From contig WHTJ01000019.1 of the NCBI GenBank assembly GCA_009377795.1, positions 1 to 40,138 on the forward strand: DNA of 40,138 nucleotides, read 5' to 3'. Below are positions 19,882 to 40,138 of the stretch, piece after piece (positions within the stretch are counted from its first letter, which is position 1; each line of letters opens with the position of its first letter). Made by a program: the position numbers and the translations under genes. Under the pieces are notes generated by a model that saw only the letters and a list, made by a program, of their open reading frames with translations, was not told where the DNA came from and ran no database searches. Origin of the DNA: Propionibacteriales bacterium. GTDB taxonomy: Bacteria; Actinomycetota; Actinomycetes; Propionibacteriales; Nocardioidaceae.

Positions 19882-19924
19882 CCCTCATGATGCACCCGGA
19901 GGGGGTCACTGCCGGGAGCTCGGC

Positions 19925-22906: not shown

Positions 22907-22916
22907 GGATGCCCCC

Positions 22917-23348: not shown

Positions 23349-23363
23349 GGTCCTAGCGCGCGA

Positions 23364-23585: not shown

Positions 23586-23671
23586 GCGAGGGGCCTCCCG
23601 AGCCTCGACGGTGTGCGGTTCGTTCCGTCACACCCGTGTGGTCCGCCTTCCTTACGTATGACGAGACGGAC

Positions 23672-23712
23672 CGGTAGCGATTTTATGACTCCGCATCGCA
23701 TCATGACATGAT
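23672..23712 (-). promoter_or_regulatory. Candidate flp promoter in an AT-rich island
   Basis: The minus strand reads ...tgtcatgatgcgatgcggagtcaTAAAATcg, with an actinobacterial -10 TANNNT (TAAAAT) and a weak -35 TGTCAT 17 nt upstream. Local AT content is unusual for this genome, and the site would leave an ~80-nt leader. Confidence 0.3.
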
Positions 23713-24600: not shown

Positions 24601-25511
24601 CGGGTCATCTCCACGGTCTCGGCGGCCACGTCGGCCTCCTGGTGCCGCTTGCTCTGCACCAGGAACCGCTCGGGCACCTCCACCCCGGCCAGCCTCCGCA
24701 GCCACATGATCCCGGCGGCGAAGATCCCGATGCACACCATCAGCATGAGCTGGCCGTTCGCGGTGTCGTACGGCTCCAGGTACCTCTCGTTGAACAGGAC
24801 GAGGAGCGCCGCGACACCCAGCGTGATCCCCACGACGACCTGCACGCTGCGGCGGGTGCTGCGGCGCTCGGCCTCCACCTTGCGGCGAAGGTCGAGCTCC
24901 TCGCGCGCGGACTCGGCCAGCGACGACAGCACCTCGCGCAGGCCGGGTCCACGAAGCCTGGCGTTGAGGACCAGCGCAGCGACGATAAGGTCGGCCGACG
25001 CGTCGTCCAGGTCGTCGGCGAACTTCAGCATCGCCTCGTGCATCGGCTCGCGGATCCGCAGCCGGTCCACCAACAAGTTGAGGTGCGGACGGATGCTCGG
25101 CGAGGCGTTGATCGCGGTCGCCGGGATCGCCTGTTCGAGCCCCACCGCACCCGCGATGGTGTCGCGCAGCGCCTCCGTCCACGACGCGAGCCCGTCGAGG
25201 CGCTCGATCTGGGCGCGCTCGGCGGCGGCGCCGCCGAAGATTCGGTCCCAGAACGCCGCCAGCAGGCCGAGGGCCACGGCGAGCACCGGCCACTGGGTCG
25301 CGACCAGCACAACCAGACCCGCCGCACCTCCGAGCAGCAACCGCCGGGCGGACTCGCCGAGCGTCCTCTGGTAGTTGGACCACCCCCCCGGCCTGGCGGG
25401 GTCGCGTGGCGGCAGCCCGCGGATCGCGATGATCAGCAGCCAGACCCCGGCGCCCACCACGGCGCCGATCAGCATGATGAGGAGATAGTCCGGGGTCAGC
25501 ATCAGGCCCAC
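24597..25511 (-). CDS. tadB: TadB (type II secretion system F-family platform protein)
   Basis: 304 aa with an N-terminal TM, a cytoplasmic helical domain and C-terminal TMs. It overlaps tadA by 10 nt. Confidence 0.75.
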   Translation of the reverse strand: MGLMLTPDYLLIMLIGAVVGAGVWLLIIAIRGLPPRDPARPGGWSNYQRTLGESARRLLLGGAAGLVVLVATQWPVLAVALGLLAAFWDRIFGGAAAERAQIERLDGLASWTEALRDTIAGAVGLEQAIPATAINASPSIRPHLNLLVDRLRIREPMHEAMLKFADDLDDASADLIVAALVLNARLRGPGLREVLSSLAESAREELDLRRKVEAERRSTRRSVQVVVGITLGVAALLVLFNERYLEPYDTANGQLMLMVCIGIFAAGIMWLRRLAGVEVPERFLVQSKRHQEADVAAETVEMTR

Positions 25512-26809
25512 TGCCCGTGTACGAGCGGCCGGTACCCGGCCTCCTGCAGCTCCGCGATGGCCTGCATCGGCGCGTGCGGTACGGCCCGGCCGTCCGGCCC
25601 GGGTGCGAACACCTCGCCGGACAGGACCCGCTCGTCGATGCCGGTGACCTCGCGGATGCTCTCGACGATGCGCACCATGCCGCCTCCCTGGCTGTATTCA
25701 TTGCGCTTGCGCATGAACACCACGAAGTCCAGTGAGCCCGCGATCAGCATGTGGGTGGCCTGGATCGGGAGCCGCTCGCGGGACTGGATCGCGTACGTGC
25801 TGATCCGGTTGAAGACCTCCATGGACGAGTTCGCGTGAATCGTCGACAGCGAGCCGTCGTTGCCCTGGCTCATGGCGTTGAGCATGGTGACGATCTCGTC
25901 GCCCAGGACCTCACCCACGATGACCCGGCTCGGGTTCATCCGCAGCGAGCGGCGTACCAGGTCGGACATCGAGACCCCGCCCACGCCCTCGGAGTTAGGC
26001 AGTCGCTCCTCGAAGGAGACGACGTTCGGGTGCAGATCCGGGAACTCACCGAGGCCCACCTCGAGCGCTCGCTCCACGGTCACCAGGCGCTCCACGGGCG
26101 GGATCTCGTTGGCCAGCGCGCGCAGGAGCGTGGTCTTCCCGGCGTTGGTCGCCCCGGCGATCATGAGGTTCTTGCGGGCTGTCACCGCCGCGCGCAGGAA
26201 CTCCGCGATCTCCGGGGTCATCGTGCCGTTGGCGACCAGGTCGGTGAGGAACACCTTGCCCATACGCGCCTTGCGGACCGACACCGACGGACGCGCGCAT
26301 ACGCCCATCACGGCCGAGAGTCTCGATCCGTCGGGCAACCGCAGGTCCAATTGCGGGTTGGCGGAGTCGAACGGGCGGCTGGAGAGACCGGCGTGTGACG
26401 CCAGGACCTGGATCAGGTCGACCAGCTCCTCGTCGGACTCGGCGACCGGCGGGTGCACCACCTCGCGACCGTCGCCGTACTGCACGAACACCTGGTCGCA
26501 GCCGTTGATGTCGATGTTCTCGACCTCGGGGTCGTCGATCAGCGGCTGCAGGCGTCCGACCCCGAACAGCGCGGAGTGGACCGCGGTGGCGAGTGCGGCC
26601 TCGTCGTCCGAGCTGGCCGGTGTGCGCCCGGAGGCGATCTCGGTACGGGCGTGGTCCTCGAGTACCTGCACGATCAGCGATCGCGCGAACTCCCGCTCGT
26701 CCTCGACGGTCATCGCGGGGTAGCCGTTGACCTGGTCGCGGCGGCGTTGCTCGTTGAGTCGGTCGGCGACCTGCACGCGTAGCTGGCGTACGAGTTCGTG
26801 ATCAGTCAT
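25502..26809 (-). CDS. tadA: TadA/CpaF secretion ATPase (type II/IV secretion NTPase family)
   Basis: Walker A GATNAGKTT, Asp box, Walker B SRVIVGEV, and His box TIHANS. Confidence 0.9.
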   Translation of the reverse strand: MTDHELVRQLRVQVADRLNEQRRRDQVNGYPAMTVEDEREFARSLIVQVLEDHARTEIASGRTPASSDDEAALATAVHSALFGVGRLQPLIDDPEVENIDINGCDQVFVQYGDGREVVHPPVAESDEELVDLIQVLASHAGLSSRPFDSANPQLDLRLPDGSRLSAVMGVCARPSVSVRKARMGKVFLTDLVANGTMTPEIAEFLRAAVTARKNLMIAGATNAGKTTLLRALANEIPPVERLVTVERALEVGLGEFPDLHPNVVSFEERLPNSEGVGGVSMSDLVRRSLRMNPSRVIVGEVLGDEIVTMLNAMSQGNDGSLSTIHANSSMEVFNRISTYAIQSRERLPIQATHMLIAGSLDFVVFMRKRNEYSQGGGMVRIVESIREVTGIDERVLSGEVFAPGPDGRAVPHAPMQAIAELQEAGYRPLVHGQWA

Positions 26810-27836
26810 GTCTCACCCCCTGCTGGTCGTCCTCCGGTGATGCCGCGTGGTAGTAGTGTCTCGGCTCGGTCGGCGGTCCGGCCTCGTCATGCTCCGGCGG
26901 CGGCGGAGGCGGCGGCGGCGGAGGCACGGAGTCCGCCGGCTGCCCGGCCGGCCGGCCCTCGGACTCGGCGAGATGCGGCTGCTGCCATGGTTGCGGCTCG
27001 ACCTGCATGTGCCACTCCCCCTCCGCTTCCTGCTGCGGCCATGCGTCGTACGGCTGGTCGGCGGGCACGAAGAACGGCGCTACCGCCCGCGAGAGATCAC
27101 CGGCGACCTGGCGGGCCGACCTGACCAGCGCCGTACGATCCGGGCGGCCGGTCACCGCGCCGGCGAAGATCTGGGCGCCCTGCGGATCCCACGCCAGCAC
27201 CCACTTGTAGGAGATCGGAACGTCCATCTGGTCGAGGGCGGCGAACACCTCTCGGACGGCCTCCCGCTTCTTCTTCGGGTCGGCGACCACCATGACGGCG
27301 ATCGGCACACCGTGCGGGTTCGCCGGGTCGAGATCGCGGGCGAGGACGTTGATGCGCTCGCGGAGGTGGACGACGCTGGAGGGCTCGGTGTCGCAGACCA
27401 TCACCAGCAGCCGGGCGGAGCGCATGAGCGCGTTCTGCGGAGTCTGCGCGCCGCAGCGTCCCAGGTCCGCGAGCACGTCGTACCCCTGCAGGCCGTCGAA
27501 GATCGATCCCAGCTGCGGCCACATGTTGCCGATTCCGGCTGCCTGCTCGGGTACCCGGAGGCCGACGAGGACGTCCAGGCCGCCGATCACCTGCTGGGTG
27601 TGGCTGAGCAGCAGATCCGAGCGCAGCCCGCGACGGCCGGCCGCGGCGAGGGTGACGAGTCCGCGGTCGGCGTCGAGCACGCCGCCGTCGAGCGCGGGCA
27701 TGCGGATGGCGATATCGCTGCCTGCGGTGTCGCACTCGGCGACCACGACCGGCCGGGGCCACAACGCGCCGATGGCCAGGGCCGCGGTGGTCGCACCGGG
27801 TGATCCCTTGGACGAGGCGAACGCGACCAGCGCCAT
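26802..27836 (-). CDS. tadZ: TadZ/CpaE-like ParA/MinD-fold pilus localisation protein with a degenerate Walker A and a poly-Pro/acidic tail
   Basis: The N-terminal ASSKGSPGATTAALAIG corresponds to the deviant Walker A KGGxGKTT, but the GK[ST] Lys is replaced (GATT). The C-terminus has PPPPPPPPPPPEHDE. Gene position between cpaB and tadA. Confidence 0.6.
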   Translation of the reverse strand: MALVAFASSKGSPGATTAALAIGALWPRPVVVAECDTAGSDIAIRMPALDGGVLDADRGLVTLAAAGRRGLRSDLLLSHTQQVIGGLDVLVGLRVPEQAAGIGNMWPQLGSIFDGLQGYDVLADLGRCGAQTPQNALMRSARLLVMVCDTEPSSVVHLRERINVLARDLDPANPHGVPIAVMVVADPKKKREAVREVFAALDQMDVPISYKWVLAWDPQGAQIFAGAVTGRPDRTALVRSARQVAGDLSRAVAPFFVPADQPYDAWPQQEAEGEWHMQVEPQPWQQPHLAESEGRPAGQPADSVPPPPPPPPPPEHDEAGPPTEPRHYYHAASPEDDQQGVRHD

Positions 27837-28612
27837 CAGCGTGCGCCCGCGTTCCCGCGATCCGACGACACCTCTGCGTCCTCGGAGTCCTCGGGCGATG
27901 TGACGGTCAGGATCGCCGTACCGCTGCCGCTCGCACCGGCCACCGCCGACGTGTCGTTCGCCCGGACGAGCAGGGTGACGTGCAGGCCCTGGGTGGCTCC
28001 GGTCACCCCACCTTGGGAGTTCGCTCCGGCGGAGCCGACGTCGATCACGACGCCGGTGCCGGCGAGGGAGGCCGCAGCGCCCTGGTCCTCGGCGGACCAG
28101 ATCTGCACTTGGTCGTTGATCGCCAGCCCGGTGGGCGCCTGCTCGGGCGTCAGGACCATGCCGACCTTCTCATAGCCTGACGGGAACGGATCGCTCTTGG
28201 CGAACATCGAGCGGGTCGCGAGGGTTCCGGCCGGGTAGTTGCCGGTCGACATCATGCCGATCATCCCGGACGCCTCCTCGACGGTCATGACCTCGGGCGC
28301 GGCGACAGGCCCCGCGGACTCCACCTCGTCGAGCGTCATCGGCACCCGGCGGAGGTCGCCCTGCTCGATGACTTGGCCGCGGCCCAGCTCCACGCCGAGG
28401 TAGGCGTACTCCGTGCGGTCGGCCAGGCGCAGCGCCATCAGGCCCGCCGCGGCCGCACCGCCGACGATAAGAAGCACCGCGAGTACGGCGAGGAGGGGCC
28501 GTCGCTCGCGGTTGGAGGGAAGCCGTGATCCCGTCCCCACCCCGCGAGCGTTGCGTCTGCGGGCGGGAGCTTCGGTCGATGCCATGAGTACCCCAAGGGT
28601 GAGAACAATCAA
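27836..28612 (-). CDS. cpaB: CpaB/RcpC family Flp pilus assembly protein (SAF domain). The probable true start is the ATG at 28585 (MASTEAP...).
   Basis: It has an N-terminal TM anchor (LLAVLAVLLIVGGAAAAGLMAL), a SAF-like beta domain and a Gly/Ala/Ser-rich C-terminus. It is the first gene of the tad operon. Confidence 0.65.
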   Translation of the reverse strand: MIVLTLGVLMASTEAPARRRNARGVGTGSRLPSNRERRPLLAVLAVLLIVGGAAAAGLMALRLADRTEYAYLGVELGRGQVIEQGDLRRVPMTLDEVESAGPVAAPEVMTVEEASGMIGMMSTGNYPAGTLATRSMFAKSDPFPSGYEKVGMVLTPEQAPTGLAINDQVQIWSAEDQGAAASLAGTGVVIDVGSAGANSQGGVTGATQGLHVTLLVRANDTSAVAGASGSGTAILTVTSPEDSEDAEVSSDRGNAGAR

Positions 28613-28780
28613 ACATCCGCTGGCTGTGACGGAGGGTCACATATCCAAGGACACGATATGCGGTTTGTCCACAAGTGAACAGCGCGGGCCTGGACCGTCA
28701 CCACGGGTGGTCGTAGGCTCCGGGAGCGGACCCGATCCAGGATGAGCCGTCGGTGACCCCCTCGTGGTCTAACGTCTCAT

Positions 28781-28794
28781 GCACGACGTCGTGC
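28781..28794. promoter_or_regulatory. Perfect 14-bp palindrome GCACGACGTCGTGC in the divergent cpaB / WXG100 intergenic region
   Basis: Read directly from sequence. It lies 40 nt upstream of the WXG100 ATG and about 170 to 190 nt upstream of cpaB on the other strand. This is the size and symmetry expected of a dimeric regulator operator. Confidence 0.35.
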
Positions 28795-28834
28795 CGAACC
28801 CCGGCACGTGAACGAATATGTGAAGGAGTTCGAC

Positions 28835-29104
28835 ATGCCCGCAGAGTTCCTTGGGATGAGCATCCCTGAGGCCGAAGCTCTGGAGAGCCGCCTCGACCAG
28901 GCGCAGCAGGCCATCAACGGCGAACGCACCCAGACCGTCAGCCAGGCCGAGAGCACCGGCTGGACCGGCGCCAACCGGGACCGGTTCATGGAGGCGATGG
29001 ATCAGCTCGGTGGCTCCATCCAGGGCTGCGAGAACGCTCTGGCCGAGGCTCGCCAAGCGGTGCAGCGGCAGAAGGAAGCCATCATCCAGGTCACCGGCGG
29101 CTGA
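28835..29104 (+). CDS. WXG100 family protein (EsxA/EsxB-like type VII secretion substrate)
   Basis: 89 aa from the ATG at 28835, with a strong SD (gaaggag) 6 nt upstream. A helical hairpin has the central motif STGWTGAN (W-x-G). The track's GTG at 28808 is a less likely start. Confidence 0.7.
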   Translation: MPAEFLGMSIPEAEALESRLDQAQQAINGERTQTVSQAESTGWTGANRDRFMEAMDQLGGSIQGCENALAEARQAVQRQKEAIIQVTGG

Positions 29105-29123
29105 AGCCCCGGATCTCTTCAGG

Positions 29124-29159
29124 GGGCGGCCGGTCCGGCTCGATCGGCCGCCCTTTGTC
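29124..29159 (+). terminator. Intrinsic terminator after the WXG100 gene
   Basis: gggcggccg - 12-nt loop - cggccgccc followed by tttgtc, giving a 9-bp GC stem plus a T-tract. Confidence 0.5.
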
Positions 29160-29306
29160 ATGCCCGGCAGCGAGAACCGTCTGCGCGTTGTGGGTCTGGA
29201 AACGGTGGTCGATATGCCCGTCTGGGCCCCGTCTGTGGGTATTGGGTCGGAGGACGGTGGCGGATCTGGGGCCACCTCGCGCCATTGCGTTAGCGGCGCG
29301 ACCCGC

Positions 29307-32300
29307 CTATTCGCGCGGGACCGCCCGTGGATTCGGGGAGTCCAGGTCGGCCGCGACCTGGATCGACTCGTGACGCCCGGTCCTGACCATGAAGCCACGG
29401 CCGACCGGCATCCCGCCCGCCGTGCTGCGCGGTAGCCGCAGGCCGAAGATCTCGCCGTCGGTGTGTGACAACGGGTTCAGCAGTACGCCGGCGCGGTTCT
29501 TCTTGATCGCGACGACGGGCCCGCGGTACATCGAGGCCAGCTCGTCGGTCGTGCCCGCCGCCACGACCAGGTTGCCGGTGTCTCGCACCCGGCGTACCCG
29601 CTCGTTGATCAGGTCGACCAGCCCGCCGTCCTGGCCGAGCAGCTCGAGATCGTCTATCACCAGGGCGTTCGGGGCGGGCAGCGATGTCACGGCCTTGCGC
29701 ATCTCTTCGGGGTCGGCGTCGGCCCCGTACACCGCGGTCACTCCCCTGGTACCCGTCAGGTCCCGCAGCGGGCTGCGCCGCGGGACGATCACCACGACCC
29801 GCCATTTCTGCGAGACCATGGACCGGATTATGGTCATCAGAGTCGTACTCCTGCCCGACCGCGGCGGGCCGGTGACCAGCAGCGCCGGGCCGTGCTCGTA
29901 ACCGTCGAACGCGCGGACCCCCAAGGTGTCGCCGCCGACGCCTACCAGGAACTCGGTCTTCTGCAGGCGCGTCTCCGCAAGCTCGAGCGCGTCCGCGACG
30001 GTGATCGAGGCGGGCAGCGGATCCACCCGGAACGGCCGCCTGGCCGGCTCGATGTCATGCAGCGCGGGCGCGTGCTGTGCGATTCGCTGTAGCTCGGCGA
30101 CCTGCGCCGTACCGTCGTCGTCCTCCGTCAGCAACGCGACCTGGGTCTCCCGCAGCCCCGCGGCCCGGAACCCGCGACCGGGCGGGTAGTGCTCGGGAAC
30201 CTCCTTCTTCGGCAACCCGATGACGGTGACGTCCTGCGGATCGGTCAGACGAAGCACCAGCTTGTCCTCGAACAACGTCGAGACGCGGCCCATCAGACCG
30301 GTGCGGTCGACGGTCGCCACGACCTTGACGCCGACGCCGGCGCCCTCCTGGAGGATCTGCATCCAGGCGTCGATCAACCTTCCGGAGTCGACCATGTCGT
30401 ACGCCGCGACGAACCCTTCCCAGCGGTCGAGGAGCACGAGAAGGTACGGGAGCCGCTCCTCCGGCGGGCTGGCCGCCCGCTGCTCGCGGATATCCGAAAA
30501 TCCCTTCATGGCAAGGCTTTGCTGCCGCTGCGCGATCTCCGCCTGAAGGCGCGCCGTGAGCCGGGTGAGCCGGTCGGTCTGTTCCCGGCTGACCACGGCG
30601 CCGGTGTGCGGCAGGCTCACCAGCGGCAGGAGCGCGTTGTTGCCGCAGTCGAAGCCGTAGACGTGCACGTCCCGCGGGTCGACGAGCCGCCCGACCGCGC
30701 CCGCGACGGCCCGCAGCGCCGACGACCGGCCGGACCGCGGGGCTCCCACCACGGCGAGGTGCCCGCCGGAGCTCAGGTCGAGGGTCGCCACCTCGCGGGA
30801 CTGCTCGCTGGGTACGTCGGCCATCCCGAACGGGATCGGCGGAACCACGCCGTTCCGGGACGGCTCAGGCAGCTCCATGTCGTCCAGCGTCACGATGTCG
30901 GGCAGCGGCGGAAGCCACGGGCTCGGCGGCGTGTCGATCTCGGTGAGCCGCTGCGTCTCCTGAAGCGCCGTGACGAGGGTCGCCAGGTCGGTCGGCACGG
31001 AGGCGTCGTCCTCGGCCTGGCCACCGCCGAGCTGGACCGGTCGGGCCAGGTCGGACCACCGCAGTGGCTTGACGTTGATCGCGGCGTCCACCACGCCCGG
31101 TGGCTTGCCTCCGACCCGGGCGGTCTGGAACGGGATCAGCGACGTGTGCCCGAGCCGGGCGAAGGCCCGGCCGGGCGTCGACTTCCCGATGTACGCGGAG
31201 TCCGGCGCCTCGATGACGTCCTTGCTGTCCTCGACGTCGGTCACCCGCAGGGCGATTCGCAGGTTGGTGTTCGCCTTGATGTCGGCGGTGACGACGCCGG
31301 CCGGGCGCTGGGTGGCCAGGATGAGGTGTACGCCGAGGGAGCGCCCCCGACGGGCGATGTCGACGATGCCTGTCACGAAGTCGGGTAGCTCGGTCACCAT
31401 CGCGGCGAACTCGTCGATGACGATCAGCAGCCGGGGCATCGGCTCGTCGCCGGGCCCCATGCCCGCGAGGTAGTCCTCGATGTCCTTCGCGTTGGCCTGC
31501 TTGAGCTGGTGCTCCCGCCGGTGGAGCTCGGCGGCCAGAGACTGCAGGGCCCGGGTCGTGAGATGGCCGTCGAGGTCGGTGACCATTCCGACGGTGTGCG
31601 GTAGGTGGTTGCAGTCCTTGAACGCGGCGCCGCCCTTGTAGTCCACAAGCACGAACGTCATCTCGTCCGGCCGGTTCCCCACCGCCAGCGAGGCGATGAT
31701 GGTCTGGAGTAGTTCGGACTTGCCCGCGCCCGTCGTACCCGCGAGCAGGCCGTGCGGACCATCACGCACCATGTCGATCGCGAACGGACCCTCTGCTCCC
31801 TCGCCGAGGACCGCCTGCGTGGTGCGCCCGCCGCGGGTCCAGATCTGCGCGAGCCGCTCCGGGTCGGGGGGATCCAGGCTGAGCACGTTGAGCAGCCGGC
31901 TCGAGCCGGGCAGGGCAAGGCCGGCGTCGTCACCGGAGACGTCCCGGATCGGCGACAGCGAACGCGCCAGCCGCTCACACCACGCGATCGACACCAGGTC
32001 CGGGCGCAGGCCGTCGACGGTCTTCTCCGACATCCGCCGCAGCCGCAGCCACGGACCGTGGCTGGTCACCACGGCCATGGCCTCGTCGGGGAGCTGGCGC
32101 TCGTCGGCGTCGAGGCAGATGAAGTACACCCCGACGGCCGGGCCCTCCTTGAGCAGGCTCACGACGCCGGGGAGCAGCCGGAGCCTGCGGGCGCCGTCCA
32201 TCAGCACGACGACCTGCTCACCGACCGGACCCGCCGGACGGCCGGTGAGGGGGTTCCCGGACGCCTTGGCCCGGGTCTCCACGAGCCGGCTCAGCTCGGC

Positions 32301-33890
32301 GATCCGTTTCATGGTGGTCTCGTCGTCGCTGCCGATCGACGACACATACGCCGCGTCGTCCTCTCCCCGGCTGTGCGGAAGCCAGCGGACCCAGTTCCAG
32401 TGTGGTTCGGCGTCCGGGGGGCACAGCACGCTCAGCCGCAGGTCCGCCGGGCTGTGTAACGCCGCGAGCTGGGCGAGCATCCAGCCGCCGATCTGGCGGG
32501 CGAAATCCCCCGCACCGGCCAGGCCGACCACTCCGGTGTTGGGCAGCAGGATGGAGGCCGGGACGTCCGGTGCAGACCACTCGACCTTGCGCTGATGGTC
32601 CTCCCGCGAGGAGTCATCGAGCTCGACCTCGCTGGGGAGGTCGCCGCTGCCGATCCGCACCTCGAGCCAGTCGGGATCACTTGGCCGGCGTTCCCACAGC
32701 CGTGCCCGGGGACCGGTGGCGAGGAGCAACAACGCGGCTGGGTCGGGCAGGTCGCGCCGTCTCGCCGCGCGCTCGATCCACAGTGCGCGCCGGGCGTCGC
32801 GCTCGACCGCCTTCGTGCGCTCGACCCACTTCTTCATGTCGTCCCGGTAGCGGTGCTTGCCCTGCTTCTTGTTGTTGAAGTAGTTGCTCATGTACATCAA
32901 CGGCCCCATCAGGCCGAAGATCAGGAAGAACCACCGCTGGAAGATCGTCGCGATGAGGACCGCACCGACCGGCGGGATAATCAGCATCATCAGCGGGAAG
33001 GCTTGCCGGGACGGCTTGTCGGGCTTCCGCGGCAGCTTGAACTCGGTCTGCCGCTTGGGCGGCAGCAGCCGCGGCGGCCGGTTGAAGTCGAGGGTCACCC
33101 CTTCAGGGCTGCTCGACAGCGACGCGTCGGGCGGCTGCACGGGCGCGAGGCTCATGAGGACCGTGCCCACCGTCACGACGCCGCCGGGCAGCCAGCGGTC
33201 GGTCTGATCCAAAGGCTTGCGGTCGAGCTCGATCAGGGCGGGCTCGGTGCCCGGATCGAGAACGTGGGTCTTATCGGCCTCGCCAGTCTCCGTGGGTACG
33301 ACGACCGGTCCGGACTCCTCGTCGGCCGGGCGATAGAGCCCATGGAGCCCGATCGCCTGGGGCGCCGGCCGGAGCGTCACGTCGCCGCTCGGTGCGACAT
33401 CGACGTACGCCGCGGTCGGCGGCAGATGGGCGTCGGCCAGCCGGATCGCGGCGTTCGGATCGGATCCGATCGCGAAGCTGCCGATGCCCAGCCGGTGGAC
33501 GTCCCCCGCGCCCGGGCCGCCCACGACGCGGATCTCCACGAGCCCCTCCGGCTCGGGCGGTGGGCAGCCGCGCGGATCGCCGAGGCTCACCACGACCCCT
33601 TCGCGGATCGGCGAGTCCACCAGCTGCTGCATCGGGTCCAGCCGCTCGCCGTTCACGAACATCGGTTTGGTCCCCCCGTTGCCACTGACACCCCCGCGCG
33701 CGGCGAGTGTGCTGTGGAGGTCGACCACCGTCCCCGAGGACGCCGCGGACGCCTGGGCGGGTGCGGCCTGTTCGAACAACGCCTCCAGCTTCGGCGCCGC
33801 CTGGCCCACGGTCACCTCCGGATCGGAGTCCAGTACGACGTCGCAGAGGGCGTCGCGCTCCGGATCGACCACGGTGAGCATGACGCGCAT
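29307..33890 (-). CDS. eccC: FtsK/SpoIIIE-family type VII secretion ATPase with three P-loop domains and an N-terminal FHA-like cytoplasmic region (EssC-type architecture rather than actinobacterial EccC)
   Basis: 1527 aa. There are three Walker A sites (GTTGAGKSE, GAPRSGRSS, GPPRSGRST) with matching Walker B/DE motifs. About 290 aa precede the TM segment (FPLMMLIIPPVGAVLIATIFQRWFFLIFGLMGPLMYM), including the FHA-like LVEIRVVGGPGAGDVHRLGIGSFAIGSDPNAAIRLADAHLPPTAAYVDVAPSGDVTLRP. Confidence 0.85.
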   Translation of the reverse strand: MRVMLTVVDPERDALCDVVLDSDPEVTVGQAAPKLEALFEQAAPAQASAASSGTVVDLHSTLAARGGVSGNGGTKPMFVNGERLDPMQQLVDSPIREGVVVSLGDPRGCPPPEPEGLVEIRVVGGPGAGDVHRLGIGSFAIGSDPNAAIRLADAHLPPTAAYVDVAPSGDVTLRPAPQAIGLHGLYRPADEESGPVVVPTETGEADKTHVLDPGTEPALIELDRKPLDQTDRWLPGGVVTVGTVLMSLAPVQPPDASLSSSPEGVTLDFNRPPRLLPPKRQTEFKLPRKPDKPSRQAFPLMMLIIPPVGAVLIATIFQRWFFLIFGLMGPLMYMSNYFNNKKQGKHRYRDDMKKWVERTKAVERDARRALWIERAARRRDLPDPAALLLLATGPRARLWERRPSDPDWLEVRIGSGDLPSEVELDDSSREDHQRKVEWSAPDVPASILLPNTGVVGLAGAGDFARQIGGWMLAQLAALHSPADLRLSVLCPPDAEPHWNWVRWLPHSRGEDDAAYVSSIGSDDETTMKRIAELSRLVETRAKASGNPLTGRPAGPVGEQVVVLMDGARRLRLLPGVVSLLKEGPAVGVYFICLDADERQLPDEAMAVVTSHGPWLRLRRMSEKTVDGLRPDLVSIAWCERLARSLSPIRDVSGDDAGLALPGSSRLLNVLSLDPPDPERLAQIWTRGGRTTQAVLGEGAEGPFAIDMVRDGPHGLLAGTTGAGKSELLQTIIASLAVGNRPDEMTFVLVDYKGGAAFKDCNHLPHTVGMVTDLDGHLTTRALQSLAAELHRREHQLKQANAKDIEDYLAGMGPGDEPMPRLLIVIDEFAAMVTELPDFVTGIVDIARRGRSLGVHLILATQRPAGVVTADIKANTNLRIALRVTDVEDSKDVIEAPDSAYIGKSTPGRAFARLGHTSLIPFQTARVGGKPPGVVDAAINVKPLRWSDLARPVQLGGGQAEDDASVPTDLATLVTALQETQRLTEIDTPPSPWLPPLPDIVTLDDMELPEPSRNGVVPPIPFGMADVPSEQSREVATLDLSSGGHLAVVGAPRSGRSSALRAVAGAVGRLVDPRDVHVYGFDCGNNALLPLVSLPHTGAVVSREQTDRLTRLTARLQAEIAQRQQSLAMKGFSDIREQRAASPPEERLPYLLVLLDRWEGFVAAYDMVDSGRLIDAWMQILQEGAGVGVKVVATVDRTGLMGRVSTLFEDKLVLRLTDPQDVTVIGLPKKEVPEHYPPGRGFRAAGLRETQVALLTEDDDGTAQVAELQRIAQHAPALHDIEPARRPFRVDPLPASITVADALELAETRLQKTEFLVGVGGDTLGVRAFDGYEHGPALLVTGPPRSGRSTTLMTIIRSMVSQKWRVVVIVPRRSPLRDLTGTRGVTAVYGADADPEEMRKAVTSLPAPNALVIDDLELLGQDGGLVDLINERVRRVRDTGNLVVAAGTTDELASMYRGPVVAIKKNRAGVLLNPLSHTDGEIFGLRLPRSTAGGMPVGRGFMVRTGRHESIQVAADLDSPNPRAVPRE

Positions 33891-34195
33891 AGGCGCTCCT
33901 TCGAGGTCCGCGTCTTTACCGTGTAGAGCTTACGAGACCTCGGTCGAATCGTCCGCGGCCGGCCACGGTGTGTAGGCGCCGATGACCCTTCCCCTCGATA
34001 GGCTGCGTCGAACGCGCGTGAGTAGACGGGAGCGGGCATGCTTGGTTACTCGGTGGAAACCCACGGACCCTGCGTGAAGAGGCGACGCAGGTCGAGTCCG
34101 TGGGCGACGACTGCGAGTCGGCCGGTGACGCCGTGTGGCGCGAGAGCCGGAACGCCGCCCAGGTGGTGCGGTACGGCGGCTTCGAGCTGAGGCCG

Positions 34196-34582
34196 ATGGC
34201 CGACGGTGGACCGGCCGTGTCCTCGACCCACAGCCAGGGCATCGCTCCTGGCGGTTGCTACCCGCCGAGCGACTGGGCACCCCCGCTGCCACGTCCGTCC
34301 GAGGCGGAGGAGCAGCTCGCGGAGGCACTGGAGCGGTTCGCGGACGCCCGGGAGCGTCTCGGCGACACCCTGGAAACCTCGCTTCGTGACCAGGCGGAGG
34401 AGCTCCGGCAGGGCGCAGAGGACCTGGAGAACTGGGATCGTCCCCCGATCTGCTGGCCGCCGTACCCTCCCCCGACCAGCCCGGAGTTCCCCCCGGCGTA
34501 CTGGCGAGACCAGTTCCCGAGGACGCTCACGACGGCACCTGACGTCGCGCAGGCGAGGGAGGCGACCGATGCCGACGCCTGA
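34196..34582 (+). CDS. Small Pro/Cys/Trp-motif protein (128 aa) and paralogue of the next gene: MADGGPAVSSTHSQGIAPGGCYPPSDW... helical core ...DRPPICWPPYPPP
   Basis: GC3 is high. There is a GAGG 6 nt before the ATG, and the gene overlaps the next gene by 14 nt. It shares the SQGIAPGGCYP and PIC[W/I]PP motifs with the ORF at 34569..35180. The track's 34100 start is upstream read-through. Confidence 0.5.
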   Translation: MADGGPAVSSTHSQGIAPGGCYPPSDWAPPLPRPSEAEEQLAEALERFADARERLGDTLETSLRDQAEELRQGAEDLENWDRPPICWPPYPPPTSPEFPPAYWRDQFPRTLTTAPDVAQAREATDADA

Positions 34583-35180
34583 CGACGACCACCTCTCGCT
34601 GTACTACCCAGGACCACCGTCCGACCGCGCGGAGCGGGCCGAGGAGATCCGCAACCTGGCGCGGAACCTCGGCGAGATCGCGGCCGACGTCGAGCAGCAG
34701 GCCGACCGTTACGCCCGATCCGCCGAACGGGTCGAGCAGGACTGGCATGGGCCCCGAGCCACCACCTGGCTGCTGGGCGCCCGTTTCACCGCGGGCAGGC
34801 TGCGGAGGTACGCACAGGCGGTGGAGGACTGCGCGCACGAGCTGCGCAACTACGCCCACCTGCTGGACGGGCCGGTGTTCACCCCACCGGTCTATGGCCG
34901 GGCCGACTCGAGCCAGGGCATTGCGCCCGGCGGATGCTACCCGGACGGGACTGGGAGCATCGAGTCCGAGACAATGCGCATCGCCGAGCGGATCTCCTGG
35001 CTGGCGTACGACATCATGGCGTGGGGACCGATCTGCATCCCGCCCGTGATGTGGCCTCAGCGCTCGATTCCGTTCCAACCCGCTCCGGAATCAGCAGAGG
35101 TGCGCCCTGCCGAGGACATGACCTGCCGGACCAGCGCGGCGCACCGCATCGTCGGCTTCGTTCCCTCGGCAGACGGCTGA
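34569..35180 (+). CDS. WXG-like helical-hairpin protein (203 aa) with a C-terminal Cys/Trp/Pro motif domain; candidate T7SS substrate
   Basis: The N-terminal ~100 aa are helical with a central W-x-G (VEQDWHGPRATTW), as in WXG100/EsxB-like proteins. The C-terminal domain carries SQGIAPGGCYP...WGPICIPPVMWPQ. Confidence 0.5.
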   Translation: MPTPDDDHLSLYYPGPPSDRAERAEEIRNLARNLGEIAADVEQQADRYARSAERVEQDWHGPRATTWLLGARFTAGRLRRYAQAVEDCAHELRNYAHLLDGPVFTPPVYGRADSSQGIAPGGCYPDGTGSIESETMRIAERISWLAYDIMAWGPICIPPVMWPQRSIPFQPAPESAEVRPAEDMTCRTSAAHRIVGFVPSADG

Positions 35181-35184
35181 GCCG

Positions 35185-35778
35185 GTGCCGATGACACCGG
35201 CTACGGCAGCCGAGTCCCTCGCCGCTGCTCGGAGCGTGTTGGACGAGCGGCTGGGCGTGGCCGAGGAGTGTGAGCTCCTCACCCTCCAGGACGCCGAGCT
35301 GGCCATCTTCGACGGCCTGAACCGGCATCATGCGGCGCCGCTGCGGACCGTGAGCGCCCTCGACGAGCAGGCGAGGGAGGAGGCGCTCGGCGCGGCGTTC
35401 GGCCGGCTGCTGGAGCGCGACCTGGTCCGGCACGAGACCGTCGACGGCCAGGCCGAGCTGCACATCGCCCAGCCGCTGGCCTCCTTGCTTGTGCTGCGCT
35501 CCGCGGCGCCGCAGGTGACGCTGCTGGAGCGGCGGGACGCCGACCAGCCGGCATTCCGCGCGCTCTACCACCATGGAGAGCTCGTGGTAGACGAATCGGT
35601 CGACCACGAGGGCACGCATCGGGTGCAGCTCCGCCGGACCGCGACGCTGGCTCCGGTCCTGGCCGCCTGGCTGGCGCCCAGCGAGATCCGGTCGGTCTCC
35701 GGGGATTCGGTCGTGGTGCGGCCCGGGGACGACGGCTGGGACCAGCTGGCGACGGCTACCGTGCTGGCTCGGTGGTGA
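35185..35778 (+). CDS. Hypothetical protein (197 aa), a possible chaperone or immunity-type partner of the upstream small proteins
   Basis: It starts 5 nt after the previous stop and has high GC3. No motif recognised. An EspG-like role is speculative. Confidence 0.4.
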   Translation: MPMTPATAAESLAAARSVLDERLGVAEECELLTLQDAELAIFDGLNRHHAAPLRTVSALDEQAREEALGAAFGRLLERDLVRHETVDGQAELHIAQPLASLLVLRSAAPQVTLLERRDADQPAFRALYHHGELVVDESVDHEGTHRVQLRRTATLAPVLAAWLAPSEIRSVSGDSVVVRPGDDGWDQLATATVLARW

Positions 35779-35966
35779 AGGTAGCGCAGACCGCAGACGG
35801 GGTGGCCGAGGACCGGCTCGGCGCATGCCGCCTCGACGACCGGACCATCGTCACGCGCCTGTCCGACGATCCCTCCCGACCGGATGCCGTCATAGCTCAC
35901 GACGTCGACCGCATCGCCTTGGTCGGTGAGCTCGAATCCTTCCTCACGGGTGCGGCCGAACGCTGA
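35772..35966 (+). CDS. Possible small ORF (64 aa, GTG start) overlapping the end of the previous gene
   Basis: Only ORF length and GC3 support it; there is no recognisable motif. Confidence 0.2.
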   Translation: MVKVAQTADGVAEDRLGACRLDDRTIVTRLSDDPSRPDAVIAHDVDRIALVGELESFLTGAAER

Positions 35967-35992
35967 CCGTGCAATGGTCCGCCGCCTCGATC

Positions 35993-36899
35993 CGGTCGTT
36001 GGTGGGTTTAGTTGCTGCCTCGGTCGAAGATGTCGGTGGAGCGTTCGGTGTAGACGGGGTCGAAGCTGCTGGCTGCGTATTGTTGGACGGCGGGGTCTTC
36101 GAGCCATTGGTGGTAGGCCTGGAGTGCTTCGGGTCCGCTGGCGACGATTTCGTCGTAGGGCAGGGGTTGGTTGTTGCTGTCGGTGAATTCTGCTCCGGGT
36201 GATTCGTAGTCGGCGGGGTTGCCGTCGTAGGTGAGGCCGTCGACTTCGACTGGTGGGTGGTTGGTGTTGTCGCCGGGGTTGTTGAAGGGGAGTTCGTTGA
36301 CGTTGTTGTCGACGGCTTGGCGCCAGCGGTCGGAGTAGTTGTTGGCCCAGTCCGTGTCGGCTTCGGGGACGGGTTGTTCGTGGCCGAGGAACTCTTTGAG
36401 GATGGTTTTGGTGGCGTCTTGGCCGAGTTGGGTGAGGAGTGGGGCGGGGTTGCCGGTGGCGAGGGAGGTGCCGCCGGCGAACAGGTAGTTGACTGCGGTG
36501 TCGACTCCGCTGTTGACCTGGTTGTCCCAGTCCTCGTTCTCTTGGATGACGTCGGCGCGGGTTTCCTGGAAGTTGTTGACGAACCAGGTCTCCAGGTGGT
36601 GTGCCTGGGCGAGCTCGAATCGGCTTGACTCGCTGAAGCGGATGCCGGTCTGTTCTGATTGGTTTTCGTCGATCATGGTCTGTACGTCGTTTTCGAACAC
36701 CACCGACAGCTCGCCGGCGGTCTCGCCGTGGCGCATCGATTCCTGGATGAACGCCGACCAGACGTCGGCCGGGGCTTCCAGCCCGTCGCGCTGGTCGGTC
36801 ATCTCCTCGAACAGCTCCGGAGTCGCCGACGTCACCGAGTCGTACATGTCCTGCTTGAAATGCATGATGATGTCGCCGTACGCCGCCTGGATCTCCGCG
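35993..36899. repeat. Direct repeat copy 1 (at least 907 bp), identical to 39232..40138
   Basis: Read directly: gcctcgatccggtcgttggtgggtttagttgctgcctcggtcgaagatg... recurs exactly 3239 bp downstream and matches to the end of the window. Confidence 0.85.
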
Positions 36900-37909
36900 T
36901 TGACGTGCGTGTCCTGGTTCTCGAACTTCCACTCCAGCAGGTTCCGGGTGTTCTCGTGCGCCAGGTTGTTGACGTTGGGGTTGTCCAGCTGCATCAGGTA
37001 GTACTCACGATCGGCCTCGATCGTCGCCGCCCGGATGAAGTTCGCGATGTTCTCCTGCCACTCCGACTCGCTGGCATATCCATTGCCGTGATGCGAGTCC
37101 CCGACACCCATCTGGTTGATCTCGTCGAAGTTGGAGCTGTAGAACTCCGCTGACGCGATCGCATTGCGGGAGATGCCGTCGAGGATTCGGGTGCGTCCCT
37201 CCCATGGCTGCATGTCGGTGGTCTGGCCGTGCAGCGCCACGTCGCCGATCGTCTGCAACGCGTCGGTGTTCCACTCGCCGTACTGCATGAGGTCGGCCAT
37301 CAGGCTCATGTTCATGCCGGCCTGCGTGTAGTTCGGGCAGAAGTCCTCCAAGAACTCCTCGGTCAGGACGCCCTGGTGGCTGGCGGCGGCCATGATGTAG
37401 CCCGAGAGCACGTTGCGGCGGCGCATCTCGTCTTCATCATCGAGGATCTCGTAGTTGCCGTGCTCCGAGAACATGTACGCCGCCCGTTGCGGGCCGAGCG
37501 TCTCCACGAATGCCCCACTGACCTCGCGGTCCTGCGACCACCTGTCGAGCATGTCCCAGACCCATTGCGGTGCCGCACCGTCGTCACCGACGTTCTCGGT
37601 GAGTTCCTCGCCGAGGCGTCGCCTGGTGGCCGCGGACGTGTCGCTGCTGACGTCATACTCGACGGTGCCGTCGAATCCCTCGTCCTGCATGATCGTTCGG
37701 GCGAGGTCGACGCGGGCCTGCAGGCCGGGTACCCGGCCGCGGACCCACTCCGCGATGCCGCTGAGGTCGCCGATCGGGCTGGACGAGAACGGCGGCTGCC
37801 GGCAGGCGTTGCTGGCCGAGGTCTTGGCACCCTCGATGTTGCTCGCGAGACTGTTCAGGTCACTGATCACCTGATCCATGTCCGAACAGTCGATACTCAC
37901 AGTGGTCAT
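36008..37909 (-). CDS. Large acidic N/Q/D/E/W-rich hypothetical protein (633 aa), candidate secreted effector. The N-terminal helical region contains an L-x-G (IGDLSGIAEW). The 3' third has atypical codon usage and a TAA stop.
   Basis: It is a long ORF with a clean start (MTTVSIDCSDMDQVISDLNSLASNIEGA). The first ~420 codons use GAG/CAG/CTG/GCG. The last ~210 codons use GAA/CAA/AAA/ACC/CCC/GTC and almost no G at position 3. Its 3' 880 nt are duplicated at the window end. Confidence 0.6.
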   Translation of the reverse strand: MTTVSIDCSDMDQVISDLNSLASNIEGAKTSASNACRQPPFSSSPIGDLSGIAEWVRGRVPGLQARVDLARTIMQDEGFDGTVEYDVSSDTSAATRRRLGEELTENVGDDGAAPQWVWDMLDRWSQDREVSGAFVETLGPQRAAYMFSEHGNYEILDDEDEMRRRNVLSGYIMAAASHQGVLTEEFLEDFCPNYTQAGMNMSLMADLMQYGEWNTDALQTIGDVALHGQTTDMQPWEGRTRILDGISRNAIASAEFYSSNFDEINQMGVGDSHHGNGYASESEWQENIANFIRAATIEADREYYLMQLDNPNVNNLAHENTRNLLEWKFENQDTHVNAEIQAAYGDIIMHFKQDMYDSVTSATPELFEEMTDQRDGLEAPADVWSAFIQESMRHGETAGELSVVFENDVQTMIDENQSEQTGIRFSESSRFELAQAHHLETWFVNNFQETRADVIQENEDWDNQVNSGVDTAVNYLFAGGTSLATGNPAPLLTQLGQDATKTILKEFLGHEQPVPEADTDWANNYSDRWRQAVDNNVNELPFNNPGDNTNHPPVEVDGLTYDGNPADYESPGAEFTDSNNQPLPYDEIVASGPEALQAYHQWLEDPAVQQYAASSFDPVYTERSTDIFDRGSN

Positions 37910-38045
37910 GGTCTGGGTTTGTCCTCGCTCGGGTACGGCGCAGGAGGAGCCTAGCCGTCGAACGGGTCACCGCGGCCGCGGAAGCGTCCCGCACCGCGCG
38001 CGATGCGCGCCCCGTGACCCGACGCTGTGTAAGACTGGTTGCGAT

Positions 38046-39230
38046 ATGAGTCACGGAACGAAGCGCATAGCGCCCGCGGCCGTCGCGGTCATGTTGGCGA
38101 CCGCCTGCGGTGCATCTGGGGCGGAGGGTGACGGCGACGGCGACGGCGACCAGCCCGCGGACATGCAGGTCGTGGCCGGCGGCAGTGCCGAAAGCCGCCT
38201 CCCGGGCTACGTCACCGACGTCGACGTCCGCGACGGAATGATGGCGGTCATCGGTCTACGCGACGGCGAGACGTCGGTGCTGTGGCAGGTGAACGACGGC
38301 CAGCTCGAGGAGACCCCCCTGCCGGGGATGGAGTCGATGACCGACGTGGCGGTCGCCCCCGACGGCTCGGTGATGGTGGTGGACGCCTCGGGTATCTGGC
38401 GGGTGTCCGGATCGGATGCGCAACTGGAGATCGCCGACGACGACGCACAAGACACGGCCGTCCGGACCGAGAACGGCGACATCCGCGCGGTTGCGGTCGA
38501 CGGCGAGGGGAGGCTGCTGTGGACCGTGGTCGGCAGCGAGGACCGCACCACGCAGGCCGATGCGCATGCCAAGTCACGCCACCCGATCGTCGTACACCGG
38601 CTGGACGGCGATCAGGTCGACACGGTGGCGGGCTCTGACCGGCCGGCCTCCAACTCCGACGAAGAGCTCTTCGATCGGCAGCAGGACCCGCCGGCGGGTA
38701 CACCGGCGCGAGGCTTCGCGATGGTCTCCCCCGGTCCGGATCTCGACCTTGCCGCCGACTCGGCGGGTGTCTACCTGCTGGCCAGCAGCTACGTCCTGAC
38801 GGTCTCGCCCGACGGAAGCCTCTCGAAGCTCGCCGGTGGCGTCGACCGTGATGCTCCCGGGCGGCCGTTCACCGACGAAGGCGTGGCCCAAGAGCTGGGC
38901 ATGGAGATCACCGAGCGCTCGGGGATCTCCGCGAGTGACGGACGAGTCGTGATCGCCGACTTCTCCTTCACCGGTGAGTTCGGTGACAACGCCGACTTCG
39001 CTTGGACCGGCGATTTCACGAACGTGCAGCAGCGGCTGATCGACAAGGTCATGGACGGCGCCGTGCACGACGCCGGAGCCGTGCTGGTCGAGGACGGCCA
39101 CGCGACCACCGCCGCGGTGCACGCGAAGGCGGCCGCGATCGACGGAGACTGGTTGTACCTGGTCGGCCAAGTCGACGACGATCGCGACCAGGCCATCCTG
39201 GTGCGCACGCGGGTTCCCGACTGGCGGTAG
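38046..39230 (+). CDS. Secreted protein or lipoprotein with a beta-propeller-like repeat (NHL/SGL-like)
   Basis: From the ATG at 38046 it begins MSHGTKRIAPAAVAVMLATACGASGAEGDGDGDGDQ (signal peptide plus Cys). Recurrent strands such as VAVAPDGSVMVVDASGIWRV, VAVDGEGRLLWTVVGS, LTVSPDGSLSKLAGG and RVVIADFSFTG are present. The track's 37878 start is unlikely. Confidence 0.55.
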   Translation: MSHGTKRIAPAAVAVMLATACGASGAEGDGDGDGDQPADMQVVAGGSAESRLPGYVTDVDVRDGMMAVIGLRDGETSVLWQVNDGQLEETPLPGMESMTDVAVAPDGSVMVVDASGIWRVSGSDAQLEIADDDAQDTAVRTENGDIRAVAVDGEGRLLWTVVGSEDRTTQADAHAKSRHPIVVHRLDGDQVDTVAGSDRPASNSDEELFDRQQDPPAGTPARGFAMVSPGPDLDLAADSAGVYLLASSYVLTVSPDGSLSKLAGGVDRDAPGRPFTDEGVAQELGMEITERSGISASDGRVVIADFSFTGEFGDNADFAWTGDFTNVQQRLIDKVMDGAVHDAGAVLVEDGHATTAAVHAKAAAIDGDWLYLVGQVDDDRDQAILVRTRVPDWR

Positions 39231-39231
39231 A

Positions 39232-40138
39232 GCCTCGATCCGGTCGTTGGTGGGTTTAGTTGCTGCCTCGGTCGAAGATGTCGGTGGAGCGTTCGGTGTA
39301 GACGGGGTCGAAGCTGCTGGCTGCGTATTGTTGGACGGCGGGGTCTTCGAGCCATTGGTGGTAGGCCTGGAGTGCTTCGGGTCCGCTGGCGACGATTTCG
39401 TCGTAGGGCAGGGGTTGGTTGTTGCTGTCGGTGAATTCTGCTCCGGGTGATTCGTAGTCGGCGGGGTTGCCGTCGTAGGTGAGGCCGTCGACTTCGACTG
39501 GTGGGTGGTTGGTGTTGTCGCCGGGGTTGTTGAAGGGGAGTTCGTTGACGTTGTTGTCGACGGCTTGGCGCCAGCGGTCGGAGTAGTTGTTGGCCCAGTC
39601 CGTGTCGGCTTCGGGGACGGGTTGTTCGTGGCCGAGGAACTCTTTGAGGATGGTTTTGGTGGCGTCTTGGCCGAGTTGGGTGAGGAGTGGGGCGGGGTTG
39701 CCGGTGGCGAGGGAGGTGCCGCCGGCGAACAGGTAGTTGACTGCGGTGTCGACTCCGCTGTTGACCTGGTTGTCCCAGTCCTCGTTCTCTTGGATGACGT
39801 CGGCGCGGGTTTCCTGGAAGTTGTTGACGAACCAGGTCTCCAGGTGGTGTGCCTGGGCGAGCTCGAATCGGCTTGACTCGCTGAAGCGGATGCCGGTCTG
39901 TTCTGATTGGTTTTCGTCGATCATGGTCTGTACGTCGTTTTCGAACACCACCGACAGCTCGCCGGCGGTCTCGCCGTGGCGCATCGATTCCTGGATGAAC
40001 GCCGACCAGACGTCGGCCGGGGCTTCCAGCCCGTCGCGCTGGTCGGTCATCTCCTCGAACAGCTCCGGAGTCGCCGACGTCACCGAGTCGTACATGTCCT
40101 GCTTGAAATGCATGATGATGTCGCCGTACGCCGCCTGG
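39232..40138. repeat. Direct repeat copy 2 (truncated by the window end)
   Basis: See copy 1. It begins 1 nt after the TAG of the 38046..39230 gene. Confidence 0.85.
39256..40138 (-). CDS. Second copy of the acidic 633-aa protein gene (3' part only; continues beyond the window edge)
   Basis: It appears identical nucleotide for nucleotide to 36017..36899. The track's M start (MHFKQ...) is only the last in-frame Met before the window end. Confidence 0.6.
   Translation of the reverse strand, partial: QAAYGDIIMHFKQDMYDSVTSATPELFEEMTDQRDGLEAPADVWSAFIQESMRHGETAGELSVVFENDVQTMIDENQSEQTGIRFSESSRFELAQAHHLETWFVNNFQETRADVIQENEDWDNQVNSGVDTAVNYLFAGGTSLATGNPAPLLTQLGQDATKTILKEFLGHEQPVPEADTDWANNYSDRWRQAVDNNVNELPFNNPGDNTNHPPVEVDGLTYDGNPADYESPGAEFTDSNNQPLPYDEIVASGPEALQAYHQWLEDPAVQQYAASSFDPVYTERSTDIFDRGSN

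Follow-up and report, generated by a model that had tools for sequence, protein, structure and literature searches.

A Cys/Pro-capped module shared by two overlapping genes in a putative WXG100-type secretion substrate cassette of a Propionibacteriales bacterium

The sequence examined here, positions 1 to 40,138 of contig WHTJ01000019.1 from a Propionibacteriales bacterium (Nocardioidaceae; GCA_009377795.1), is referred to below as the window and has a GC content of ~70%. It includes a three-gene operon, here named A-B-C, next to a gene for an EssC/EccC-like ATPase of a type VII secretion system (T7SS). An initial annotation had noted that the small proteins encoded by A and B share two cysteine-containing motifs, SQGIAPGGCYP and PICxPP, here named cap 1 and cap 2. 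This observation was confirmed and could be extended, and the interpretation that accompanied it is partly supported. We describe a putative WXG100-type T7SS substrate cassette that carries a previously undescribed Cys/Pro-capped module.

Genes A and B overlap by 14 nt (ATGCCGACGCCTGA), and a GGGAGG Shine-Dalgarno sequence is found 7 bases 5' of the ATG of B. The codon-usage log-likelihood was +0.17 bits/codon for 34196-34579 in A, +0.60 for 34100-34195, +0.34 for B and +0.51 for C, and in each case the annotated frame was the sole one of the six that was clearly positive. A plot of GC content at third codon positions (GC3) was consistent with the same frames. A, B and C are coding genes in their annotated frames, and for A and B, which had been proposed to be coding, the Shine-Dalgarno sequence and the translational coupling lead to the same answer. 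As the codon usage of 34100-34195 is positive, the longer form of A is favoured, and A probably starts at GTG 34100 rather than at ATG 34196. Residue numbers given for A are nevertheless those of the 128 aa form starting at ATG 34196. The product of A is acidic (24 Asp and Glu vs 10 Lys and Arg), includes 20 Pro and lacks a signal peptide.

The 11 residues of cap 1 are identical in A and B, while the underlying DNA differs at 4/33 positions, all of them synonymous third-codon positions (atc/att, gct/gcg, cct/ccc and ggt/gga). This pair was recovered independently by a repeat finder (repeat D1). With 8 synonymous sites among the 33, the probability that four of four random substitutions would be synonymous is approximately 0.002-0.0035, which bears out the earlier proposal that the motif is under purifying selection and is not a recent copy. 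A degenerate DNA pattern for cap 1 found two matches in the window and none in 100 shuffles, and with BLASTP the 11-mer alone gave an E-value of 1e-5. Judged from these comparisons, the caps are held by purifying selection, and the remainder of A and B has diverged beyond recognition.

The second shared element, PICWPP in A (residues 84-89) and PICIPP in B (residues 154-159), was also verified, and corresponds to repeat D6. It can be extended in both proteins to the consensus A-x-D-[LI]-x-x-W-x(1-3)-P-I-C-x-P-P. The two cap types have in common a proline-framed cysteine core, P-x(1,2)-C-hydrophobic-P-P (PGGCYPP, PPICWPP, PGGCYPD and GPICIPP), which occurs four times in the ~330 codons of A and B, as against two occurrences elsewhere in the 40 kb window when all six frames are read. 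A further segment of B, found directly after the second helix of its predicted hairpin, resembles cap 2 and lacks the cysteine. Comparison of this relic (residues 101-109) with GPICIPPVM gave a score of 30, which was reached by 0/3000 shuffles. A PPxY tetrapeptide is also found after a cap 2-type element in both proteins, as PPAY at residues 99-102 of A (34490-34501) and as PPVY at residues 106-109 of B (34884-34895). The sharing of PPxY may be due to chance in proline-rich sequence.

The initial annotation described the two motifs as differently arranged in A and B, which proved to be wrong. In both proteins the order is cap 1, helix, cap 2, and the difference is a shorter helix in B, where the spacer between the caps is 28 residues rather than the 60 found in A, i.e. 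32 shorter. A gap-tolerant local alignment of residues 13-100 of A with residues 112-170 of B had a score of 69, not reached in any of 2000 shuffles, and required one 30-residue gap within the helix. When cap 1 was excluded, the same alignment had p=0.002, and in it the short helix of B aligns with the C-terminal part of the helix of A. The start of the helix in A (PSEAEEQLAE) resembles the start of helix 1 in B (PSDRAERAEE) in both DNA (repeat D2) and protein (p ~0.02-0.03), and E-N-W-D-R-P in A is aligned to E-Q-D-W-H-G-P in B. Like D1, repeats D2 and D6 were found independently by the repeat finder. As the same cap-helix-cap module is present in the same order, and B includes a Cys-less cap 2 relic, A and the C-terminal part of B are partial paralogues built from one repeated unit of which only the caps are preserved. 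On this sequence evidence, the module accounts for most of A, and in B it is fused behind the hairpin with a shorter helix.

Table 1. Positions in the window of the genes, motifs and predicted structural elements discussed
Feature	Position	Strand	Details
Gene A	34100-34582	+	160 aa from GTG 34100 (NCBI GEU93_07450) or 128 aa from ATG 34196
Cap 1 in A	34232-34264	+	SQGIAPGGCYP, residues 13-23, Cys21; motif pair, repeat D1
Long amphipathic acidic helix of A	34295-34435	+	Residues 34-80, net charge -10; AF2
Cap 2 in A	34433-34462	+	W80-D-R-P-P-I-C86-W-P-P; alignment, repeat D6
Gene B	34569-35180	+	203 aa, GEU93_07455
WXG100-like hairpin of B	34617-34868	+	Helices 17-58 and 62-100; AF2, pLDDT 79-87
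Cys-less cap 2 relic in B	34869-34895	+	G101-P-V-F-T-P-P-V-Y109; directly after helix 2 of the hairpin
Cap 1 in B	34911-34943	+	SQGIAPGGCYP, residues 115-125, Cys123; motif pair, repeat D1
Short inter-cap helix in B	34959-35021	+	Residues 131-151; AF2, low confidence, pLDDT ~58
Cap 2 in B	35022-35045	+	W152-G-P-I-C156-I-P-P; alignment, repeat D6
Gene C	35185-35778	+	197 aa; third in operon, 4 nt gap from B
Canonical small WXG100 gene (W-T-G)	28808-29104	+	Conserved in Kribbella relatives
EssC/EccC-like T7SS ATPase gene	29307-33890	-	1527 aa, three FtsK_SpoIIIE stretches; profile matches; divergent from A

The folds of A and B were predicted with AlphaFold2 (AF2) as single-sequence, single-chain models. 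In the model of A there is one helix, residues 34-80, with predicted local distance difference test (pLDDT) values above 90 (90-98 over residues 40-80), and the tails are of low confidence. This is in agreement with the ~45-residue amphipathic helix anticipated earlier, and A is predicted to be a small acidic protein with one long amphipathic helix. For B, the two helices of the hairpin are separated by W59-H60-G61 (nt 34743-34751), which lies exactly at the turn, and beyond the hairpin and the helix at residues 131-151 the model is disordered. When the model of B was compared with the PDB using Foldseek, nearly all of the top matches were EsxA/EsxB, with a root mean square deviation of 1.4-1.7 Å over 77 columns, template modelling (TM) scores (target) of 0.72-0.85 and E-values of 0.06-1. 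In profile searches, B weakly matched the Pfam WXG100 family (PF06013; E 0.011, 16.5 bits vs a cut-off of 27.3) and TIGR03930 (E 0.0029, 17.8 bits vs a cut-off of 44.85). The conserved WXG100 gene of the same locus, at 20.7 bits, is also under the 27.3 cut-off, and therefore sub-threshold scores are normal in this lineage. The hairpin of B is 29% identical over 82 residues to WXG-like small proteins of Kribbella (BLASTP E 0.012; hhalign E 5e-4), with which B shares W-x-G-P-x-A-T. With the models, Foldseek, the profiles and the Kribbella alignments all pointing the same way, the suggestion that B includes a WXG-like (W-H-G) hairpin was upheld, and B is predicted to consist of a WXG100-like helical hairpin and a C-terminal extension of ~100 residues.

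Three other explanations for cap 1 were rejected. It is not a lipobox (L-[AS]-[GA]-C), as there is no signal peptide and no hydrophobic segment before APGGC; A has a Kyte-Doolittle 19-residue maximum of -0.08, and B carries the motif at residue 123. A role as an RNA or DNA element can be set aside because there was no Rfam match at 33800-36100 and the differences are all at third codon positions. A recombination substrate or target site duplication would not fit the 29/33 identity of the two copies, in which the longest exact run is 12 nt.

The motif pair does not correspond to a named domain, as the initial annotation had surmised, and no Pfam or NCBIfam match above threshold and no PDB relative was found for A, B or C. 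Word-indexed searches of 5.8 billion clusters with A and B returned only the queries themselves. An exhaustive phmmer search of 1.84 billion representatives with B returned B and one unrelated beta-repeat protein (P0123, 'SQAGGCYPDVTGT' repeated); this search reports only E-values of 0.001 or less and did not return A, so diverged relatives that include only the module may be missed. A tblastn search of plasmids with A and B and a metagenome search with gene C gave no match, and no relevant literature on the GGCYP motif or on DUF6571 was found. A match of A to D-mannonate dehydratase in PDB sequences (E 0.003) was judged to be a chance alignment.

When the exact motif was sought in 185,579 species genomes, only chance matches were found. 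The pattern GIAPGGCYP was found nine times, never in an actinobacterium; four of the nine are antisense in RNase P RNA genes and one is in an unrelated EF-hand-like repeat protein. The RNase P RNA matches (class A; L003, L004, L005 and L008) are from Planctomycetota, Brocadiaceae and Alphaproteobacteria, and represent a trap for motif scans of this kind. The repeat protein (222 aa; L007, 5296-5964, minus strand), from a metagenome-assembled genome, starts with MAVAFNFQANYGIAPGGCYPQGGG...HHHCPGPYGPPPSW, followed by EF-hand-like DxNxDGR repeats. It has the same 9-mer near the N-terminus and a second Cys/Pro/Trp patch, and was judged to be a chance match. The DNA pattern for Q-G-[ILVMF]-A-P-G-G-C-Y-P had 0 matches in JGI metagenomes. 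The sole other occurrence found was a Logan contig carrying A, from run SRR10173838, which is 100% identical to the window and supplies no variants for an estimate of pN/pS, the ratio of non-synonymous to synonymous polymorphism.

The divergent T7SS ATPase gene reported in the initial annotation is present, has three FtsK/SpoIIIE domains and is accompanied by a WXG100 gene. The gap between its start and that of gene A is 209-305 nt, depending on the start of A. The closest relatives of the ATPase are Kribbella proteins (~64% identity). A weak FHA-like (Yop-YscD_cpl) match was seen at residues 121-168 of the ATPase (33400-33890, minus strand), and the same family is precomputed for several of its homologues; such a feature is EssC-like (T7SSb-type) and is seen here in a protein from an actinobacterium. 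No EccB/D/E, MycP or EssA/EssB/EsaA was detected among the scanned ORFs of the window, and the flanks are Tad-pilus and housekeeping genes. The orthologous Kribbella loci are similar, and EccB/D/E, MycP and EssA/B were likewise not seen there.

In six related loci one flank of the ATPase gene is conserved, with the small WXG100 gene on the opposite strand followed by a Tad-pilus operon, as in the window. The ATPase and WXG100 genes are syntenic with the Tad operon in the window (19900-33890) and in all of the Kribbella-type relatives examined (L010, L011 and L014-L016), and this operon includes genes for SAF/CpaB-like and TadZ-like proteins, TadA, TadB/C, Flp and TadE/G, then a 934-938 aa regulator. 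Otherwise, the ATPase gene of the relatives is flanked by differing cassettes of a small WXG-like protein, a large effector and small downstream proteins. One of these pairs a small WXG-like protein with Peptidase_C2 and another has small proteins plus DUF6571; further cassettes comprise a 102-103 aa protein with a 627-693 aa protein, and an 88 aa protein with a 422 aa WXG-like/glycine-zipper protein and two downstream proteins. Neither the caps nor homologues of A or B were found in these cassettes. From this comparison, A-B-C sits in a hypervariable T7SS substrate/effector slot beside the ATPase gene, and the hypervariability of the slot accounts for the orphan status of A-B-C. It had been proposed that a lack of conservation in related genomes would mark the ORFs as non-coding. 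No homologue of A, B or C was indeed found, and we attribute the missing homologues to the hypervariable effector slot rather than to non-coding DNA.

Gene C matched no family in Pfam or NCBIfam profile searches. It has a local similarity, short but clear (pairwise E 4e-6), to a 269 aa protein encoded directly after the WXG-like/glycine-zipper effector in one of the related loci (L014), and is a candidate accessory protein, either chaperone or immunity protein. An EspG-like sequence pattern in C was unconfirmed by any profile, and we make no such claim. In L014, a Kribbella-type locus, the cassette (15071-18088) is an insertion that separates the WXG100 gene from the Tad genes. It encodes an 88 aa helical protein, the 422 aa protein, which has a W-D-A-P N-terminal domain and a C-terminal glycine-zipper/hydrophobic region, the 269 aa C-like protein and a 227 aa membrane protein, and apparently represents a T7SS toxin that targets membranes, together with accessory and immunity genes.

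The closest cassettes, those of the Kribbella-type loci, occupy the same slot and have a similar gene arrangement, a small domain with W-x-G-P-x-A-T and a distant relative of C. They differ in that they lack the caps and homologues of A or B, and in that their effectors are large (Peptidase_C2, DUF6571, TPR_23 or glycine-zipper). Among characterized systems, B is like the WXG100 proteins EsxA/EsxB in its ~84-residue helix-turn-helix (residues 17-100) with W-x-G at the turn, in the position of its gene beside an FtsK/SpoIIIE-type ATPase gene, in the overlapping arrangement with A and in the lack of a Sec signal. Linkage to a gene for an FtsK/SpoIIIE-family ATPase, as seen here across the gap given above, is named as a defining T7SS trait in PMC4010439. 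Unlike WXG100 proteins, B is 203 aa long with a 100-residue Cys/Pro-module extension, and its hidden Markov model scores are under the curated cut-offs; A, its partner, is a single helix, not a hairpin, and shares the module with the extension of B and not with the hairpin.

In the LXG/Lap systems of T7SSb (PMC10801868), too, a gene for a small α-helical protein lies directly upstream of one for a larger substrate whose N-terminus is a helical targeting domain, and an accessory gene comes next; the weakly FHA-like N-terminus of the window ATPase recalls EssC. The EsaD/EsxBCD and TslA/TlaA systems are likewise reported to have a gene for a small helical partner upstream of a larger substrate (PMC9600955 and PMC10653861). 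However, neither A nor B has an LXG, DUF3130, DUF3958 or Lap3/4 Pfam match even at E-values of up to 10, the targeting domain of B is WXG100-sized and B has no recognizable toxin domain. Lap proteins are moreover helix-turn-helix proteins that have no module in common with the C-terminus of the toxin (PMC10801868).

The gene order, with a small helical protein, a ~200 aa WxG-bearing protein and a cytosolic accessory protein, resembles that of PE/PPE/EspG, as do the proline motifs YPGPPSD in B and YPPSD in A, at the N-terminal end of helix 1, and B has a weak PPE match (E 0.063, 13.7 bits vs a cut-off of 26). Unlike in that system, there was no PE match for A and no EspG match for C at a useful threshold, and A has one helix, not two. 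To our knowledge, Cys/Pro caps are not a feature of PE/PPE proteins.

The best reading of this locus is that A and B are a lineage-specific T7SS substrate pair of partial paralogues, in which the caps would mediate either pairing of A with B or their recognition by one shared partner. A short segment that is perfectly identical between two co-expressed paralogues fits a like-with-like or common-reader interface. The form that we tentatively prefer, and which is quite possible, is pairing of A with B via the module, locked by the four cysteines. The two proteins would pair by like-with-like packing of their helices, and the four proline-framed cysteines would lock the pair, either by disulfides formed after export or in a shared thiolate metal site. 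As A has no WXG hairpin of its own, it would be exported together with B by the T7SS. A may be most analogous to the small helical partner proteins whose genes lie upstream of those for LXG and other WXG-type effectors. Such partners are well documented, and the lap genes for them are typically upstream of their LXG toxin gene (PMC10801868). Gene C would act as an accessory chaperone or immunity protein. A bolder version, in which cap-helix-cap is a previously undescribed hetero-association 'clasp', the four Cys of two polypeptides form inter-chain disulfides or a tetrathiolate metal site, and A, which lacks a WXG/LXG domain, rides on the WXG-bearing carrier B, is improbable.

Several points weigh against this interpretation. 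We infer each of its main steps, i.e. A-B pairing, disulfide or metal chemistry and export. At 47 residues in A and 21 in B, the helices are of awkward lengths for a symmetric clasp, and the segments that bear the motifs are of low confidence or disordered in the single-sequence models of both proteins. The Foldseek E-values for B are not significant, a helical hairpin carries little information, and the profile scores of B are under the curated WXG100 thresholds. No further T7SS membrane component was found among the window ORFs scanned. There is no homologue of A, B or C in any collection searched.

The caps could instead be a shared short linear epitope that a single third party binds in both A and B, whether this is C as a chaperone, the substrate-binding domain of the ATPase or a cysteine-modifying or processing enzyme, with no A-B interface. 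Eleven identical residues with unrelated immediate flanks are typical of a linear motif with one reader, and the caps are in predicted non-helical or disordered segments beside helices, as are T7SS export signals. Export motifs of the YxxxD/E and FxxxD types are documented (PMC10801868), and both proteins have a candidate, Y109-G-R-A-D113 in B, 9 residues past helix 62-100, and Y22-P-P-S-D26 within cap 1 of A. However, YxxxD/E carries too little information for significance here (~1 chance match per protein is expected, as estimated from residue frequencies) and is not kept in cap 1 of B (CYPDG). The T7SS signals known so far reside on one partner and do not take the form of Cys/Pro motifs, there is no evidence for binding of C to A or B, and the bipartite nature of the module, with two caps and a conserved AxD[LI]xxW, is left unexplained. 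We regard this as rather unlikely. An explanation that we rate slightly lower, and as unlikely, makes the module the payload: a small effector peptide, rich in Cys, Pro and Trp and either membrane-active, metal-binding or target-binding, would be secreted fused to the WXG hairpin in B and free in A, with C as immunity protein. B does have a WXG-type targeting domain and a C-terminal extension followed by a small gene, as do polymorphic T7SS effectors in the cassettes of relatives, its most hydrophobic stretch (Kyte-Doolittle 19-residue maximum 1.13, ~residues 142-160) covers helix 3 and cap 2, and the sole relative of C follows a glycine-zipper effector. Yet such a payload would be merely ~50-100 residues with no toxin-domain match, the version in A is strongly acidic and not hydrophobic, and a free copy that lacks a targeting domain would still need a carrier.

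The similarity of A and B might also be a neutral remnant, left in fast-evolving orphan ORFs by a partial tandem duplication or by gene conversion over a short tract. Alternatively, A, B or both might not be expressed genes. The motif would then have no specific function. This would fit with the complete lack of homologues, with the 100% identity of the only other occurrence (SRR10173838), which offers no population variation from which to measure constraint, and with the presence of at least one other, exact duplication in the neighbourhood. It is hard to reconcile with cap 1, in which four of four differences are synonymous, and with the saturation of the flanking residues, a pattern opposite to that of neutral decay. 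A recent conversion tract is ruled out by the four synonymous changes. In addition, the annotated frames are the only ones with positive codon usage, and AF2 predicts the helices with confidence even though single sequences were the input. Of all the explanations considered, this is the least probable, and we think it very unlikely.

T7SS effector loci evolve fast, most substrates are orphans, and the rules by which non-WXG cargo is recruited are still being worked out. Divergence of the motif at synonymous positions only provides evidence, from within the locus, for translation of and constraint on two orphan ORFs, and A and B are a candidate example of a carrier and a partner that share one short module. 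Should the caps turn out to function in assembly or recognition, they could provide a handle in searches for similar sharing of modules in cis and trans in other effector cassettes, and the clasp, if true, would be a new way of recruiting T7SS cargo. As the module is known from a single uncultured genome, its value is limited for now.

The exact duplication mentioned above is a 907 bp direct repeat (35984-36890 and 39232-40138), with 0 mismatches, and extends as far as the window end. A 285 aa ORF (39256-40113, minus strand) is 100% identical to residues 349-633 of a 633 aa protein (36008-37909, minus strand). The repeat either arose when a putative effector gene flanking a 450 aa gene (37878-39230, plus strand) was duplicated very recently or is a metagenome assembly artefact. 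The 633 aa protein is acidic and its gene is lower in GC. A homologue of it (26% identity over 632 aa, E 6e-41) is encoded beside the orthologous ATPase gene in L015 (14679-16562), a contig from a JGI metagenome, where a gene for a 102 aa helical protein precedes it, and the same contig encodes a homologue of the 450 aa protein (16563-17789; E 2e-14). Residues 1-88 of the 633 aa protein are weakly like the N-terminus of Kribbella DUF6571 proteins (E 0.005), and it is likely to be a large T7SS effector with a partner gene.

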